64,000 nucleotides of DNA from IMG/VR virus record IMGVR_UViG_3300021399_000009, positions 1 through 64,000 of that record. The stretch is one strand, 5' to 3'. The DNA comes from a virus. Its lineage: Duplodnaviria; Caudoviricetes. This document shows positions 4,175 to 14,908 of this stretch, one piece after another. The notes beneath the pieces are model-generated. The model was not told the origin of the DNA and searched no databases. It saw nothing but the letters and a program-made list of their open reading frames with translations. How positions within the stretch are numbered: position 1 is the first letter of the stretch; each line of letters opens with the position of its first letter. A program made the position numbers and the translations under genes.

Positions 4175-4207
4175 AAACACAAACCAGCAGATATATTCTT
4201 TATTAGT

Positions 4208-4236
4208 ATTATATCATAAATGTTGGAAATTGTCAA
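4208..4236 (-). promoter_or_regulatory. Leftward sigma-A promoter for the XRE gene
   Basis: Reverse strand TTGACA (4236-4231)-17 bp-TATAAT (4213-4208), with extended -10 TG. Confidence 0.8.
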
Positions 4237-4261
4237 GAATGAAATCAGTGAGGTGAATAAA

Positions 4262-5236
4262 ATGTTACCTAATCACAAAGAAGATAATAATTGTAATATG
4301 TATGACATTTCAAACAGACAATCAGTGAGTTATGGTGATATTGATTATGATAGTTTAGTTCCAAAATCGGAATCGGTTAGTGAACTTGAACTTGAATATC
4401 AACAGCAGCACAAAGAAACTCAGGGAATGGACGTATTACCGCTTGACTTATATAATGCTATGCTTCATCATTGCTTATTCAGAAAAGATTACAGGTCAGC
4501 ATTTTGGCTTGCTTGTATGGCTAATACAGGGTTAAGATACAGTGATGCTGTAAAATTTAGGAGAGCGGATTTCATTGACGAGAATGGCAAAATCAGAGAT
4601 AAGATTCTTGTGCAAGAAAAGAAAACGGACAAGCAGAGAGTTATCTTTGTAAACAAAGCTATAAAAGAAACCTTGCTTATGCTTTTATGGAACAGCGATA
4701 TAGCTCCTATGGATTTCTTAATCACTTCCAATGCTAATCGCAAGGGATATGAATATGAAACTTATATTGACAAGAACGGTAAAAAGAAAGCGGTTCGCAA
4801 GAATGGCAAATATGTTTACAAACTTGACGAAAATGGAAATAAAATTCCTAAACCTCTTTCTCGTAAACAGTCAGAAAACATTATGAAAAAGATTATCATT
4901 GAAAGCCTTGGAATTAATTTAAAAAATGATTATCGTTGTAAGAATGAACCTGATGCAGTTAATAAAATCTGTACACACTCTATCCGTAAACTTTACGGTA
5001 AAGCTATTACAGATAACTTTATTGCTCAATTTGACAGCAACTCTATGTATGCTCATACGGCTGCTATGAGTTTTTTATGCCAAGACTACGGACATAGTTC
5101 AGAAGCAATGACTACAAGATACTCAAAGGATTTTGATAACATTAAAGAAAATATTGTTATGAATATGAACTTGGGATTTGAGGTCATTCATCCGTTCTTT
5201 GAGGAAGAACTAATTAATTATTTGAGTAAAAAATAA
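4262..5236 (+). CDS. Tyrosine recombinase/integrase with intact catalytic residues
   Basis: TGLRYSD (R), EKKT (K), HSIRK (HxxR), YGHSS (H), TTRY (Y); GAGGTG RBS before ATG 4262. Confidence 0.9.
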   Translation: MLPNHKEDNNCNMYDISNRQSVSYGDIDYDSLVPKSESVSELELEYQQQHKETQGMDVLPLDLYNAMLHHCLFRKDYRSAFWLACMANTGLRYSDAVKFRRADFIDENGKIRDKILVQEKKTDKQRVIFVNKAIKETLLMLLWNSDIAPMDFLITSNANRKGYEYETYIDKNGKKKAVRKNGKYVYKLDENGNKIPKPLSRKQSENIMKKIIIESLGINLKNDYRCKNEPDAVNKICTHSIRKLYGKAITDNFIAQFDSNSMYAHTAAMSFLCQDYGHSSEAMTTRYSKDFDNIKENIVMNMNLGFEVIHPFFEEELINYLSKK

Positions 5237-6794: not shown

Positions 6795-6923
6795 TTGACA
6801 AAGTACAAATCGTGTGGTATAATATAAACATAGAGAGAACAGAAAGCTCTGTTTTCTCTATGTTGCTCCGGTTACAAAGTACAAATCGTATTTATTTATA
6901 TTCCTGTAAAGTATAAATAATAT
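6795..6923 (+). promoter_or_regulatory. Strong sigma-A promoter with three AAAGTA(H)AAAT(M)(R)T(R)T operator copies and a 5' hairpin
   Basis: TTGACA 6795, TATAAT 6818; motif at 6800, 6876, 6908; hairpin 6827-6864. Confidence 0.85.
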
Positions 6924-6927
6924 AGAT

Positions 6928-6957
6928 TAGGGTATAGCAAAGAGGTAAGACAACAGA
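6928..6957 (+). pseudogene. Possible decayed 5' half of a tRNA-Gln
   Basis: TAGGGTATAGCAAAGAGGTAAGACAACAGA resembles the Bacillota tRNA-Gln 5' half (..TATAGCCAAGCGGTAAGGCAACGGA); no 3' half. Confidence 0.4.
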
Positions 6958-6964
6958 TGGTTAA

Positions 6965-7038
6965 TGCGAGTGGGTGTGATAGCAGCACAACCGCCTTTGA
7001 CACGGTTAGAAACGGGGCAGAACCGTTACTCGCAACCA
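6965..7038 (+). tRNA. tRNA-Gln (anticodon TTG), atypical D and T loops
   Basis: Acceptor TGCGAGT/ACTCGCA + ACCA; D stem GTGT/GCAC; loop CTTTGAC; T stem AACGG/CCGTT with loop GGCAGAA. Confidence 0.75.
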
Positions 7039-7057: not shown

Positions 7058-7699
7058 ATGGGTGACATTAATCACATTAAAGAAAAATACGGAGTATATA
7101 CGATTATTGAGAAATTAAACGAAAGAGCAAAAGATGGACATTCGCTATACATAGGACAGTGTGAGTGCGGTGCGACAAAATGCAGTACATTATCTAATTT
7201 TAAATTTCAAGCTGCACAAAAGTGTACGCATTTTATACATTGTGGTAAAATTACTATTCCTTCTGATGCTTTTAAAAATAAGAGGATAGCACATATTTTT
7301 TATGGTATGTTGCGTAGATGCTATGACAAAGAGAGTAAAGACTTCAAATATTATGGAGAAAGAGGGATAATGGTTTGCCAAGAGTGGCTTGATAATCCAA
7401 CTCTTTTCGAGGAATGGGCTGATAACAATGGGTATAAAGAAAATTTAACGATTGATAGAATTTGTGAGAATGGCAATTACGAACCTGATAATTGTCGTTG
7501 GACAGTTTTACAAAATAATTCACGATTTAAGTCTAACACTAATTATATTACAGCAACAGTCACTTTAAGTGGTAAGCAATGGGCTTCTTTGATTCCCGAT
7601 GTTGGTATTAATTATATAAATAGACTTATGCGTAACAAAGGAGAAAAAGAAGTAGTAGATTTTATTGAGTACAAATTAAGGGACAAACGAATATCTTAG
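7058..7699 (+). CDS. HNH-family homing endonuclease
   Basis: GMLRRCY..YYGERGIMVCQEW..LTIDRI..NGNYEPDNCRW. Confidence 0.85.
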   Translation: MGDINHIKEKYGVYTIIEKLNERAKDGHSLYIGQCECGATKCSTLSNFKFQAAQKCTHFIHCGKITIPSDAFKNKRIAHIFYGMLRRCYDKESKDFKYYGERGIMVCQEWLDNPTLFEEWADNNGYKENLTIDRICENGNYEPDNCRWTVLQNNSRFKSNTNYITATVTLSGKQWASLIPDVGINYINRLMRNKGEKEVVDFIEYKLRDKRIS

Positions 7700-7727
7700 C
7701 TGACAGCGTGGAAAGACACGCACAAAT

Positions 7728-7803
7728 GGGAGTATAGTTCAGTTGGTAGAATATCTCTTTTTTAATGAGAAAGTCGCAGATTCGAGTTCTGCTGCTCTCA
7801 CCA
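7728..7803 (+). tRNA. tRNA-Lys (anticodon TTT)
   Basis: Cloverleaf GGGAGTA/TGCTCTC, D arm GTTC-AGTTGGTA-GAAT, loop TT-TTT-AA, T arm GCAGA-TTCGAGT-TCTGC, encoded CCA. Confidence 0.9.
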
Positions 7804-7879
7804 GAGCGTACTGAGTACGCAATAAGAACAAATGATTGTTCGAGAGGTTAGTGCGTAGCCTCGCTCAATACGCTCACCA
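7804..7879 (+). ncRNA. Putative 76-nt tRNA-like, CCA-terminated structured RNA
   Basis: 12-bp terminal stem GAGCGTACTGAG/CTCAATACGCTC + ACCA; hairpins GAACAA/TTGTTC and GAGGTTA/TAGCCTC. Confidence 0.6.
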
Positions 7880-7900: not shown

Positions 7901-8040
7901 TACTCCTTTCTGACAAAAGCCGTGTGGCGAGGCTTTGTATCGCCACAAAAATGAAATCTACACTATGCCTTGTGTATAGTTGACCTCCTTCGCCCCGATT
8001 GTCGGGGCATAACGGCAAAACAAGGGAAATACTTGCAATG
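7901..8040 (+). ncRNA. Putative structured small RNA(s) with a pseudoknot and anti-Shine-Dalgarno tracts
   Basis: AAAGCC/GGCTTT interleaved with TGTGGCGA/TCGCCACA; CTCCTTTC and ACCTCCTT; GCCCCGA/TCGGGGC hairpin. Confidence 0.45.
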
Positions 8041-8592: not shown

Positions 8593-10626
8593 ATGACATT
8601 CGTTGAAATGAGAACAAAAATGCTTGAACACTTTGCGGAGATGACAAAGGATTCAACAGAACTTTTTGAGGTAAGTCTTGACAAGGATAAGCTCTGGGAT
8701 TTATACCTTGAAAGTTTCCCACCTGAGAAGAACAAGATATTCAGAGAACGTAGAGAACATGATTGTTCTTGTTGTCGCCACTTTATTAAGACAATGGGTA
8801 ATGTGGTAGCAATCAAGGATGGTAAGATTATTTCTCTTTGGGACTTTGATATTGAGGGTGATGACACATATGAACCTTCAATTAAGGCAATGAGAGAATA
8901 TGTTCATGAGTGTGCTATCAGAGATGCGTTTTGTACAAAAGAAAGACGTATTGGAACAGAGTACAACAGAGAACTCTCCGATGGTCAGCTTCGCACTTGG
9001 GAACATTTCTATGCAGACATTCCTAATAAGTTTGTAATTACAAATGGGGATTCTAAAGAAACAAGACAGGGACTATTTCGTGATACAAGAAACGTATTCA
9101 AGCGTTCACTTGACGAGATAACAGAAGAAGCTGTTAATGTCGTTCTTGAACTTATCGCACAGGGTTCTCTTTACCGTGGCGAGGAACATAAGGGAGTTCT
9201 TGAAAGGTTTGCAAGTTATCAGGTAAAATACAATCAGCTTACCAATGAGCAGAAAGAAATCTTTGCTTGGGAGTATGCGAGTGAAGCTGGTATAGCTATC
9301 GGCAAAATAAGAAATCATTCTATTGGTACACTTCTGACAGACATTTCCGAGGGAGTTGACCTTGATAGAGCGGTAAAAAGTTATGAAGCTATTGTAGCTC
9401 CTGCCAATTACAAGCGACCAAAGGCTATTTTTACAAAGCGTATGCTTGAAGATGCTAAGAAAACTATTTCAGACCTCGGTTATATGGATTCATTAAAGAG
9501 AAGATACGCAACTCTTGATGACATTACTGTAAACAATATTCTGTTCTCTAACAGGGATTCTGCAAAACGTATTTCTGGTGCAGATATATTTGACGAAATG
9601 GCTGCAAGCGTGGCTATTAATCCCAAGAAGTTCAACAAAGTTGAAGAAATCAATATTGAGAACTTTATTGAGAACGTTCTCCCTACTGCACAGGAGATTG
9701 AAGTTCTGTTCGAGAACAAACTCGCCTCTAATATGGTAAGTCTTATTGCTTCTGAGAACAAGGACAGTAAAACAATGTTCAAGTGGGACAACAATTTCTG
9801 TTGGGCTTACGCTGGTAACGCAACAGATTCAATGAAGGAAAGAGTTAAGGCTGCTGGTGGTAGCGTTACTGGTGATTTAAGATTCTCTATTCAGTGGAAT
9901 GAGGACGGAAATGACAACTGTGACCTTGATGCTCATTGCATAACACCAATCAATGGTGATGAAATCTATTACGGTCATAAACGAAGTGTTACTCACGGCG
10001 AACTTGACGTAGACATAATTCATCCCGATGGTAGGGTTGCTGTTGAGAATATAACTTGGGCTAACAGGAATAATATGAAGGACGGTATTTATAAGTTTTA
10101 TGTTCATCAGTTTGGTGGTAGTGCAAGGAATGGTTTCAGAGCAGAGATTGAATTTGATGGTCAGATTTATAGCTTTGATTATTCTCATTCTATGAGATAC
10201 AAAGAAAAGGTGTTTGTTGCAGAAGTGATATTAAAAAATGGTCAGTTCACAATGAAACCTTTGCTTTCAGAAAATAATGTTTCAAGTAGAGAAGTTTGGG
10301 GACTGAATACCAATCAGTTTGTGCCTGTATCAGTGATTATGTATTCACCTAATTATTGGGACGAGCAGAAGGGTATAGGCAATAAGCATTATTTCTTTAT
10401 GTTAAAGGATTGTGTAAATCCTGAGACACCTAATGGCTTCTATAACGAGTTTCTTAATAATGAACTTGACAAACATAAGAGAGTTATGGAGGCTCTTGGT
10501 TCTAAGCTTGCTGTCACCAATGCTGATGACCAGCTTAGTGGTATCGGATTTAGTTCTACTAAGCGTAACTCAATTATCGTTAAGGTCAAGGGTAAGACCG
10601 AGAGAACATTAAAGATTATTTTTTAA
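8593..10626 (+). CDS. Large phage protein of unknown function; C-terminal YfaP/DUF2135-like domain
   Basis: 677 aa; HDCSCCRHF Cys cluster; LRFSIQW..DLDAHC..GELDVD..VENITW. Confidence 0.75.
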   Translation: MTFVEMRTKMLEHFAEMTKDSTELFEVSLDKDKLWDLYLESFPPEKNKIFRERREHDCSCCRHFIKTMGNVVAIKDGKIISLWDFDIEGDDTYEPSIKAMREYVHECAIRDAFCTKERRIGTEYNRELSDGQLRTWEHFYADIPNKFVITNGDSKETRQGLFRDTRNVFKRSLDEITEEAVNVVLELIAQGSLYRGEEHKGVLERFASYQVKYNQLTNEQKEIFAWEYASEAGIAIGKIRNHSIGTLLTDISEGVDLDRAVKSYEAIVAPANYKRPKAIFTKRMLEDAKKTISDLGYMDSLKRRYATLDDITVNNILFSNRDSAKRISGADIFDEMAASVAINPKKFNKVEEINIENFIENVLPTAQEIEVLFENKLASNMVSLIASENKDSKTMFKWDNNFCWAYAGNATDSMKERVKAAGGSVTGDLRFSIQWNEDGNDNCDLDAHCITPINGDEIYYGHKRSVTHGELDVDIIHPDGRVAVENITWANRNNMKDGIYKFYVHQFGGSARNGFRAEIEFDGQIYSFDYSHSMRYKEKVFVAEVILKNGQFTMKPLLSENNVSSREVWGLNTNQFVPVSVIMYSPNYWDEQKGIGNKHYFFMLKDCVNPETPNGFYNEFLNNELDKHKRVMEALGSKLAVTNADDQLSGIGFSSTKRNSIIVKVKGKTERTLKIIF

Positions 10627-12022: not shown

Positions 12023-12925
12023 ATGCGTATATTAGGCAGATATAAAAATGGCAATATTACTACAACAATATTAGACGATGGCACAAAGATAAGAAGAACA
12101 GAGGATGATGAATTTCGTCCTCTGTATGCCGAAAATTGTGATGTAAAAATTACAGACCATTGCGATGGTGGTTGCCCGATGTGTTATGAAGGTTGTACAG
12201 CAAATGGCAAACACGGTCAGTTGTTTGACTATCCAAATCTTATTGAATCACTTCATCCATACACCGAACTTGCCTTAAACGGCAACGACCTTTCACATCC
12301 CTTACTTGTACCATTTCTTTTAAAGCTAAAGGAAAAGAAAATAATTGCCAATCTTACAGTGAATCAGATGCACTTTGAGAGATATTATAATTTTATTTGT
12401 GATATTGTTGAAAGCAATCTGATTCACGGTCTTGGTATTAGTCTTAATAATCCTACTGACAACTTTATCACTAAGGTTAAACACTTTCCTAATGCGGTAA
12501 TTCATACTATTAATGGTGTTCTTACACAGATACAAGCAGAGAAGCTGGCTGATAATGATTTGAAAATTCTTATTCTTGGATATAAATATATGGAACGTGG
12601 AGTTAGCTATTATCTGGACAATGAGAATGAACTAAAGGCAAATCAGGCTTGGCTGTATAATCATCTTGATGAACTCACACAGAGATTCAAGTGTGTTTCT
12701 TTTGACAACCTCGCCATCAAGCAACTTGATGTCAAGAGATTAATGTCAGAAGAAGAATGGGAAACGTTCTATATGGGTGATGACGGTTCGTTTACATTCT
12801 ATATTGATATGGTTGATGGCACTTTCGGTAAGAATAGTCTGACACCAAAATACAAACGTATTCCCATTGGTGATAAAACCATTGACGAAATGTTCGAGAT
12901 TGTAAGAAATAATAATTGGGACTAA
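12023..12925 (+). CDS. Radical SAM enzyme
   Basis: CDGGCPMC (CxxxCxxC) preceded by DVKITDH; AGGAGG RBS before ATG 12023. Confidence 0.9.
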   Translation: MRILGRYKNGNITTTILDDGTKIRRTEDDEFRPLYAENCDVKITDHCDGGCPMCYEGCTANGKHGQLFDYPNLIESLHPYTELALNGNDLSHPLLVPFLLKLKEKKIIANLTVNQMHFERYYNFICDIVESNLIHGLGISLNNPTDNFITKVKHFPNAVIHTINGVLTQIQAEKLADNDLKILILGYKYMERGVSYYLDNENELKANQAWLYNHLDELTQRFKCVSFDNLAIKQLDVKRLMSEEEWETFYMGDDGSFTFYIDMVDGTFGKNSLTPKYKRIPIGDKTIDEMFEIVRNNNWD

Positions 12926-13271: not shown

Positions 13272-14354
13272 ATGAGCAGAAGTTTGGCACATATCGAAAG
13301 AGTAGAATGGATTAAACCTATTGAGGGTAAAGATAGAATTGTTCTTGCTGGTATTCTTGGCTGGCAAGTTATTGTCAAGAAAGACGAATTTGAAGTTGGT
13401 GACTGCGTTGTTTTCTGTGAGATTGATTCAGTATTTCCCGAAAAGCCTGAGTTTGAATTTCTTAGAAAGAATAAGTTCCGTATTCGCACAATGAAAATGG
13501 GTGGAGTTCTTAGTCAGGGTATTGCTTTTCCACTTTCAATTCTTCCAGTTAAAGAATATACAACAGGAGAAGATGTTACTGAGCTTATAGGAATTACACA
13601 GTATGAACCTACAATGGATAAAGAAATTTCTCATAAAGAGACACAGCCTGTAAAGCATTATCCTGAGTTTTTAATGCGTTGGAAGTGGTTTAGAAAACTT
13701 GTTCTTCCCAAGAAGCAGTATAAGGGGTTTCCCACCTTTGTAAGTAAGACTGATGAAACAAGAATCCAGAACGCACCATTCTATTTGGATATGGATTGCA
13801 ACTGGATTGCTACTGAGAAAGTAGATGGTCAGTCAGGTACTTTCACCTTACAGCGTATAAAGGGAAAGCATTTTTGGAACAAGGATAAATATGATTTTGC
13901 TGTATGTTCACGCAATTTAAGACTCTACACCGAAGATAGTTCATCTTATTGGACAGTGGCAAATAAATATAATATTAAGGACGTTCTTCTTTCTCTTATA
14001 GGAGAGAATGAATGGGTTTGCATACAAGGTGAGTGTATCGCCCCTAATGTACAGAAGAACAAATACCATGTTGACGAACCAGACCTTTATGTATTCAATG
14101 TTATTTTCCCAAATGGAAGAATGAATAGCATTGAAGCCAAAGCTCTTATGTCAGACAAGGGGTTAAAGTTTGTACCAATTATAGATGAATCAGTATCTTT
14201 AAAGGGAATGACAGTTAATGAAGTTCTTACCTATGCTACTGGTAAATCAGAATTATATGATACTTTGCGTGAAGGAATTGTACTTCGTTCACTCGATGGC
14301 AAGCAGAGTTTTAAGGCTGTTAGTCCTGACTTCCTGATTAAAAATGAGGAATGA
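13272..14354 (+). CDS. ATP-dependent RNA ligase (DRB0094/Rnl2-like, N-terminal OB-type module)
   Basis: TEKVDG (KxDG), CSRN, QGE, FNV, EGIV, FKAVS; N-terminal PIEGKDRI..EIDS..SQG. Confidence 0.88.
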   Translation: MSRSLAHIERVEWIKPIEGKDRIVLAGILGWQVIVKKDEFEVGDCVVFCEIDSVFPEKPEFEFLRKNKFRIRTMKMGGVLSQGIAFPLSILPVKEYTTGEDVTELIGITQYEPTMDKEISHKETQPVKHYPEFLMRWKWFRKLVLPKKQYKGFPTFVSKTDETRIQNAPFYLDMDCNWIATEKVDGQSGTFTLQRIKGKHFWNKDKYDFAVCSRNLRLYTEDSSSYWTVANKYNIKDVLLSLIGENEWVCIQGECIAPNVQKNKYHVDEPDLYVFNVIFPNGRMNSIEAKALMSDKGLKFVPIIDESVSLKGMTVNEVLTYATGKSELYDTLREGIVLRSLDGKQSFKAVSPDFLIKNEE

Positions 14355-14908
14355 ATAAACGTCTGTCCAACTTAATGCTCTTAGCTAATTTCCTATCCAC
14401 TTTATTTTATTCCGTATCATATCCGTACATTTATGCTGAGACAATTAAGGTAGTTCCACATTCGTATATAGGAATTGAACAGATACTTGCTTGCCTCGGC
14501 ACAATTATATTTTGTAGGTTATGGAACAAACATAGTGATAGATTATTTGAGCATTATAGATTGTTTTTGTGTGCTGAAATTATAGCAGACATAATTCTTT
14601 TTACTGATGTGCTGATAAGAAATGATTTGAGCTTTTATTTTCTTTTAAACATCATTATCTTCTCGGTGATTACAAGAAACCTATGTTGTGCAAGTACAAA
14701 AATGAGAGCAAAAGTAAATCCTACTGAAAAAGAACGAGAACAGTATGATAACAATTCAAATATGGTTTGCTCTATTGCAACATTAGTTGGTGCTGGTGTT
14801 GCGATAGTATTTGATTTCGATTTACGATTATTGTTTGTGCTTGCCTTTGTGGGAAATGTAATTGATAATGTGTTCTATTTATATATTTACAAAAAGATAA
14901 AGGAGTAA
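14351..14908 (+). CDS. Integral membrane protein (about 5-6 TM, half-MFS-like)
   Basis: Alternating hydrophobic segments across 185 aa. Confidence 0.7.
   Translation: MNKRLSNLMLLANFLSTLFYSVSYPYIYAETIKVVPHSYIGIEQILACLGTIIFCRLWNKHSDRLFEHYRLFLCAEIIADIILFTDVLIRNDLSFYFLLNIIIFSVITRNLCCASTKMRAKVNPTEKEREQYDNNSNMVCSIATLVGAGVAIVFDFDLRLLFVLAFVGNVIDNVFYLYIYKKIKE

Follow-up and report, generated by a model that had tools for sequence, protein, structure and literature searches.

The window, i.e. the whole 64-kb stretch of DNA analysed here, is the first part of a 108.6-kb viral metagenome record that carries direct terminal repeats. It has a GC content of ~35%, and the DNA sequencing runs holding this stretch are gut metagenomes, several from cattle and one from a goat. 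The element under study, E76, lies between a tRNA gene and a conserved protein gene. The relevant features are listed below (positions are those of the window):

4220-5236, + strand: integrase gene
6795-6823, + strand: consensus sigma-70-type promoter (TTGACA-17-TATAAT with TG, 12/12 match)
7058-7699, + strand: HNH homing-endonuclease gene, just upstream of tRNA-Lys (PHROG 374, E 4.8e-38)
7728-7803, + strand: tRNA-Lys(UUU) gene with encoded CCA, its last base adjoining E76 (ARAGORN; Rfam RF00005, 63.7 bits)
7804-7879, + strand: E76, a 76-nt CCA-terminated, acceptor-stem-closed, non-cloverleaf RNA element
8593-10626, + strand: gene of a conserved 677-aa protein
13272-14354, + strand: RNA ligase gene (PF21189 and PF09414 domains; PHA02142 OB-fold and RNA_ligase domains)

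The genes near E76 are oriented on the + strand throughout. Judged by its sequence, the promoter at 6795-6823 could drive a transcript comprising the tRNA, the HNH gene, and E76, and no terminator-like site was detected between 6700 and 8200. The occurrence of an RNA ligase gene and a tRNA-Lys(UUU) gene in one early region is reminiscent of phage counter-defence by tRNA repair. For the 185-aa ORF adjoining the RNA ligase gene (14351-14908), no family match was obtained.

Upstream of the HNH gene, a weak tRNA-Gln(UUG)-like gene is found (6965-7035, followed by CCA), which shows a C31·A39 mismatch and a GGCAGAA T loop. It was missed by ARAGORN and detected in the sensitive Rfam scan only, with 29.6 bits against a gathering score of 29. 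The segment preceding it (6930-6957) resembles the 5' half of the normal tRNA-Gln of relatives. Directly 5' of tRNA-Lys, at 7700-7727, lies a repeated motif that consists of CTGA, a short GC hairpin, and CACAAA(A)TG; it is also located directly 5' of tRNA-Lys in two related contigs, L003 (about 4175-4202) and L039. A third copy (7910-7953), well conserved in the contig L161 described below, is placed ~30 nt 3' of E76 with no tRNA behind it. This motif may represent a processing signal or a phage promoter, or else what is left of a lost tRNA cassette.

The original prediction had described a 76-nt element that starts right after the tRNA-Lys CCA and ends in ACCA. This was confirmed: the tRNA ends at 7803 and E76 begins at 7804, i.e. 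the spacer is zero. The element is built from the following parts:

7804-7816, + strand: 5' strand of the closing stem P1, with an acceptor-like 7 nt, C8 of the C·A mismatch, and 5 nt (from the fold and the in-register comparison with the larger element E142)
7817-7825, + strand: junction J1/2, ACGCAAUAA, 9 nt
7826-7841, + strand: hairpin P2, 6 bp with an AUGA loop (GAACAA-AUGA-UUGUUC)
7844-7862, + strand: hairpin P3 (GAGGUUA-GUGCG-UAGCCUC), with lower 5 bp GAGGU/GCCUC and apical 9 nt
7863-7875, + strand: 3' strand of P1
7876-7879, + strand: discriminator-like A and encoded CCA, also found in L161 and E142

In the MFE structure, P1 consists of pairs 1-7/66-72, the C8·A65 mismatch, and pairs 9-13/60-64, the last of which is U·G. 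P2 and P3 are separated by GA, and P3 directly abuts the 3' strand of the closing stem. The 25 pairs are interrupted by a single mismatch, and the fold energy amounts to -30 kcal/mol compared with -16.05 +/- 2.63 kcal/mol for 200 dinucleotide shuffles, none of which (0/200) folded as well (z -5.3). The predicted architecture, a 12-bp end pairing with one C-A mismatch that encloses two hairpins, is thereby reproduced, and the fold does not change when E76 is folded within a context of 261 nt. The minus strand of E76 also folds well.

The hexamer UACGCA, made up of U13 and part of J1/2, is complementary to the apical UGCGUA of P3 over six contiguous Watson-Crick pairs (p about 0.009 by shuffling). 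This complementarity, which is also present in E142, suggests a junction-to-loop pseudoknot that would loosely resemble the D-loop/T-loop elbow of tRNAs. As modelled, the candidate pseudoknot would be sterically tight, with one connecting loop of only 1 nt. The 12-bp stem followed by NCCA had been proposed to act as a module of the type read by RNase P. The corresponding sequence features are present, namely a ~12-bp acceptor-type helix, a 3' RCCA, and a 5' junction. P3 abuts the stem and, stacked on P1, may yield a coaxial helix longer than the acceptor/T arm of a tRNA (12 bp).

The ends of E76 can be numbered like a tRNA, with the acceptor 3' strand at 66-72, A73, CCA at 74-76, and a total length of 76; the interior is not tRNA-like. 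At the acceptor end, the 7-bp stem GAGCGUA/UACGCUC is followed by A and CCA. Neither a D arm nor a T arm (T loop UUCRANY) is present, the loops of E76 being AUGA and GUGCG, and a 7-nt anticodon loop is absent too: P2 of the window has a loop of 4 nt, that of L161 one of 3-5 nt, and in E142 an 86-nt domain takes the place of P2. The lack of these three hallmarks had been foreseen, as had the lack of a canonical match. ARAGORN did not detect a tRNA in default, relaxed (-ps80/-ps90), intron or mitochondrial modes, and Rfam gave no match for E76 even at E<=10 and none for the L161 copy at E<=1. An assignment to tmRNA finds no basis either, with G3-C70 in place of G3·U70, no tmRNA call by ARAGORN, and no match in Rfam.

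Several other readings were tried and rejected. A descent from tRNA-Lys or another tRNA was dismissed: the likeness is confined to the termini, and with the ends held fixed it loses its significance. The 8-codon ATG frame in P2, which might have pointed to a peptide, loses its ATG in L161. Interpretations as attP, terminator, or tmRNA were ruled out on anatomy, and no U tract follows E76.

A pattern scan of a metagenome collection revealed one further copy of E76 on the ENA contig L161. The order of genes on this contig is tRNA-Gln, tRNA-Lys, an odd tRNA with a long anticodon loop, and then the E76 copy at zero spacer. The tRNA that precedes E76 hence differs between the two contigs: in the window the element adjoins the CCA of tRNA-Lys, in L161 that of the tRNA with the long anticodon loop. 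Both copies are identical in 75/77 alignment columns. The sole difference resides in the P2 loop, where a substitution together with an inserted U converts 6 bp/AUGA to 7 bp/UCA, and the strong fold is retained in the variant. When 76-nt windows were slid along the 2.7 kb of alignable DNA downstream of E76, 0/262 exceeded the identity of E76 to L161, the mean being 80%. Because E76 is the best-conserved 76-nt stretch in this comparison (flanks about 80%), it looks, at the sequence level, like a unit under purifying selection. A search for homologues in related phage tRNA clusters had been suggested, and those recovered are the L161 copy and the architectural relative E142; covariation within E76 itself is not seen, since only two distinct sequences are at hand, which differ at one loop.

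The odd tRNA is conserved behind tRNA-Lys in L003 (4283-4368), L039 (3140-3225), and L161 (3454-3534, minus strand). It combines normal acceptor, D, and T arms with an anticodon loop of 12-17 nt (17 nt in L039, 12 nt in L161). Its score as a tRNA is 54 bits in L161, and the label given by ARAGORN is Cys(aca) or '???'. It may represent either a tRNA carrying a mini-insert or one that does not decode.

tRNA-Lys and E76 are also covered together by contigs of two additional cattle-gut studies. In a cattle-gut contig that is ~3.5% diverged (X5), differences occur at 7798, 7880, and 7892, and none of the 25 differences listed (out of 31) falls inside E76. A goat-gut contig of the same HNH/tRNA-Lys lineage lacks exactly 76 nt (7793-7868; the joint leaves ~9 bases ambiguous). 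Since tRNA-Lys and E76 have the 3' heptamer CTCACCA in common, this variant is best read as the clean loss of one unit by microhomology recombination. L003 and L039, two of the three closest relatives (93-94% identity in the 677-aa protein), harbor a full tRNA array at the homologous place without E76. The array of L039 encodes Gln, Lys, the odd tRNA with the 17-nt anticodon loop, Leu, Pro, and Leu; L003 shows the same array plus Tyr. The third close relative, L002, comprises too little upstream sequence to judge the presence of E76. With its absence from L003 and L039 and the 76-nt loss in the goat-gut contig, the element is dispensable in nature. Judged by this distribution, E76 is an accessory cassette that was kept in some lineages and cleanly lost in others.

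Among 79 related loci gathered via the 677-aa neighbour gene, no E76 was detected by blastn, nhmmer, or a single-sequence covariance model. The same three methods, applied to 80 loci with HNH relatives and the L161 contig, returned the L161 copy as the sole match. In IMG/VR, HNH relatives reach 57% identity at most and could not serve as anchors; closer ones exist in Logan and ENA. Searching GenBank phages with E76 in the distant mode of blastn produced tRNA-Lys matches only. Exact and degenerate pattern scans of IMG/VR yielded no other copy and one chance match, located in a GC-rich coding region of the record L162, and two scans of GTDB genome contigs found neither E76 nor the 3' motif it has in common with E142. 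The latter motif matched only the L003 and L039 contigs in IMG/VR. Literature searches brought up no description of an equivalent of E76, but statements on T4 RNAC/RNAD and general analogues only.

A wider class of such elements was searched for behind the ARAGORN tRNAs of the fetched loci, as segments that start 0-8 nt downstream and are closed by a 7-bp stem followed by N and CCA. Five segments not called by ARAGORN were recovered among 56 tRNAs, compared with 0.3 expected from 20,000 random positions. Two of them are aberrant tRNAs, and three are not tRNA-like, i.e. the E76 copy of L161, a 139-nt element of L062, and the following element of L003, which also occurs in L039:

L003 4801-4942 and L039 3829-3970: E142, a 142-nt CCA-terminated element directly after the tRNA-Pro CCA

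The two copies of E142 are 98.6% identical, and the fold reaches z -3.1. E142 follows the plan of E76: an 11-bp closing stem with ACCA, a 9-nt junction, a long P2 domain (86 nt), and P3 beside the 3' strand. In the 3' domains of both elements, 21/28 positions are identical (compared with dinucleotide shuffles, p 0.001-0.004 for the corresponding halves and 0.018 over the whole lengths). With the register taken from this 3' alignment, 6/11 comparable pairs of the closing stem are identical and four are changed on both sides and still paired, and the position of the C·A mismatch of E76 is occupied by a U-A pair in E142. The lower five P3 pairs (GAGGU/GCCUC) are identical. The junction sequence AUGCAA of E142 is complementary to its apical P3 sequence UUGCAU (p about 0.009 by shuffling), and the junction/P3-loop core shows one difference from E76 to E142, which is compensated (C-G to U-A). 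P2 is the only variable part, with 6 bp/AUGA in the window, 7 bp/UCA in L161, and the 86-nt domain in E142. A full-length match of the E76 model to E142 was not obtained; a local match to P3 was the only one (E 0.064), and in the MAFFT alignment the 5' part of E76 is instead placed on a segment inside E142. On these sequence comparisons, homology of E76 and E142 is moderately supported (p 0.001-0.02).

E142 also has an internal segment with UACGCAA, resembling the E76 junction, which may mark a nested duplication. Two lineages each of E76 and E142 are in hand. The features of the proposed family were found in the window, L161, L003, and L039 alike: a start 0 nt after a tRNA CCA, a closing stem of 11-13 layers, a 9-nt junction, a variable P2, a GAGGU/GCCUC P3 with a junction-complementary 9-nt loop, and an ACCA end. 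L062, a distant phage with 14 tRNAs, was noted to carry two elements. Its 139-nt element (13285-13423) begins 2 nt after tRNA-Ile and has a 10-bp closing stem followed by U and CCA. The other (12493-12572), an 80-nt aberrant tRNA with a T arm, follows tRNA-Ala and was missed by ARAGORN.

The reading preferred here, to which we give about an even chance, is that E76 is a modular gene of the phage tRNA operon, encoding a tRNA-sized, non-decoding mimic of tRNA ends. The element keeps only the terminal module of a tRNA, i.e. a 7-bp acceptor-type stem extended to ~12 bp, A73, and the encoded CCA. Its interior differs from that of tRNAs, with the variable P2 and a 5-bp P3 whose loop may, in the model, pair with the 5' junction in a somewhat elbow-like manner. 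E76 cannot decode because it has no anticodon loop. The suggestion of a tRNA mimic is partly upheld: E76 has a tRNA-like terminal module, behaves like a selected tRNA-array cassette, and has a larger relative.

According to the proposed mechanism, E76 would be co-transcribed with the upstream tRNA. RNase P would read the acceptor-type helix together with RCCA and cut 5' of G1; given the zero spacer, the upstream tRNA would receive its mature CCA-3'OH end by the same cut. The dimeric tRNA precursors of T4 follow this logic, as do the t-elements of plant mitochondria (PMC1920247). Trimming of the A/U-rich trailer back to the CCA of E76 itself would then leave a 76-nt stable RNA that acts through its tRNA-like end. 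It might help to process its neighbour, or bind to or compete for factors that read acceptor ends. By analogy, release by RNase P and 3' trimming is probable. Bacterial RNase P recognizes the coaxial acceptor/T helix as well as its length and pairs with the 3' RCCA (PMC4919913, PMC12710915). A more far-reaching variant, which we consider distinctly unlikely, is that E76 and E142 constitute an undescribed phage RNA family that mimics tRNA ends, is made by tRNA processing, and acts in trans on a factor reading acceptor ends, e.g. by titrating an immune nuclease or toxin of the host that is directed at tRNAs, or by undergoing charging or CCA repair.

It is conceivable that E76 serves solely as a cis-acting processing handle resembling a t-element, recruiting RNase P and 3' trimming enzymes for a precise upstream CCA end and a protected transcript 3' end, with the freed RNA being functionless. 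Such a role agrees with the direct attachment of E76 to the upstream CCA, seen in two different contexts, with the RCCA tail and ~12-bp helix, which correspond to the requirements of RNase P (PMC12710915, PMC4919913), with the precedent of t-elements (PMC1920247), and with the simple hairpin that relatives without E76 carry after the same CCA. However, a handle does not need a conserved interior, and P3 and the junction are identical in L161 and similar in E142. Moreover, the other tRNAs of these arrays manage without one, and a variant on the contig X20 possesses tRNA-Lys without E76. Overall, the handle in its pure form appears unlikely. Alternatively, E76 could be a counter-defence decoy that titrates a host immune or toxin enzyme acting on the acceptor ends or the shape of tRNAs. 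A phage tRNA-Lys(UUU) adjoins it and a phage RNA ligase gene lies ~5.4 kb downstream, a pairing known from tRNA-Lys repair in T4 (PMC2610378); relatives carry the tRNA with the 12-17-nt anticodon loop at the same spot, and an accessory, patchy distribution is typical of anti-defence genes. Against this stands the anatomy of E76, which, lacking an anticodon-like 7-nt loop, cannot mimic the target of an anticodon nuclease. Of the more specific proposals of the original prediction, a decoy for anticodon nucleases and a T-box ligand are unlikely for this reason, as E76 is not a plausible partner of a T-box specifier either, and a substrate of RNA ligase gained no support. Overall, we regard the decoy as quite improbable.

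The view of E76 as a functionless tRNA pseudogene, decayed or rearranged, whose stems are leftovers or arose by chance, draws on the agreement of its length with that of tRNA-Lys, on the identical 3' heptamer, and on 5/7 acceptor pairs that equal those of tRNA-Lys. Other tRNA wreckage is present in the region, including the 5' half of a tRNA-Gln at 6930-6957, and E76 was lost in several lineages. Yet its interior resembles no tRNA once the ends are discounted, and 25 pairs with a single mismatch and z -5.3, the highest conservation of all stretches relative to L161, and an architectural relative with a different stem sequence (E142) speak against decay, leaving this view only a small chance. 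Very improbable, finally, is that E76 acts as an aminoacylated non-cloverleaf tRNA, or at the level of the DNA or the minus strand, e.g. as an attachment site or terminator. The minus strand does fold well, but all neighbouring genes as well as the CCA logic are on the + strand, and no U tract follows E76. A working tRNA is contradicted by the absence of a 7-nt loop with U33 or a purine-37 pattern in either variant, by the 86-nt P2 domain of E142, and by the missing T loop; ARAGORN is silent on tmRNA.

The current view of phage tRNA clusters is that they counteract tRNA-cleaving defences of the host, and the non-tRNA RNAs embedded in them are unexplained, with RNAC and RNAD of T4 as the classic case. 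E76 provides a compact 76-nt case with testable features, i.e. the exact fusion to a tRNA CCA, its own CCA, and the possible elbow-like pseudoknot, and a natural deletion variant can serve as a control. Should E76 prove to be processed and stable, it would represent a new family of tRNA mimics, and RNase P would be seen to finish the 3' end of the preceding tRNA via a non-tRNA neighbour; if not, it is a minor curiosity of tRNA-array turnover. The trans-acting reading, if true, would offer the first functional handle on the class of T4 RNAC and RNAD.

Several known RNAs share individual traits with E76. Canonical tRNAs (RF00005) and acceptor-T minihelices agree with it in the length of 76 nt, the 7-bp end stem 1-7/66-72, A73, CCA at 74-76, and the ~12-bp helix, whereas the D arm, the 7-nt anticodon loop, and the T loop have no counterpart in E76. 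Plant mitochondrial t-elements carry tRNA-like signals by which tRNA-processing enzymes create the ends of neighbouring RNAs (PMC1920247). They flank organelle mRNAs, whereas the neighbour of E76 is a phage tRNA and E76 encodes its own CCA. The rewired non-cloverleaf, 8/4, and 9/3 tRNAs (Mukai et al., PMC5389517) are likewise tRNA-sized, missed by gene finders, and equipped with a 12-bp acceptor branch. They keep an anticodon loop and a T arm, neither of which E76 has, and are thought to decode. The tRNA-like domain of tmRNA and the bacterial Y RNA (YrlA) are, like E76, non-decoding partial tRNA mimics (PMC4201824); E76 differs from them in the absence of G3·U70, a T loop, and a tag template, and both the tmRNA mode of ARAGORN and Rfam were silent.

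The closest resemblance is to RNAC (species 1) and RNAD (species 2), small RNAs from the tRNA region of T4 whose function is still unknown (PMC3014915, PMC9697503). Like E76, they are non-tRNA small RNAs of a phage tRNA cluster, encoded directly 3' of a tRNA. The T4 genome (NC_000866, 70908-71918) shows the order segB (a homing endonuclease gene), tRNA-Arg, rnaD, and rnaC, which parallels that of HNH, tRNA-Lys, and E76 in the window (7058-7879). Furthermore, rnaD begins 1 nt behind tRNA-Arg and has CACCA at its end, and a T-arm-like hairpin occurs in rnaC. The similarity does not extend to homology, as the E76 covariance model, run with filters off on this T4 region, gave no match over rnaC or rnaD. 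The T4 RNAs measure 119 and 139 nt, and their MFE folds lack a long closing acceptor-type stem, in contrast to the 76-nt E76, which has one. The accumulation of RNAC and RNAD was shown experimentally, whereas E76 is known here from sequence alone. E76 is most likely an addition to the poorly understood small RNAs of phage tRNA clusters, with RNAC and RNAD of T4 as its nearest precedent.
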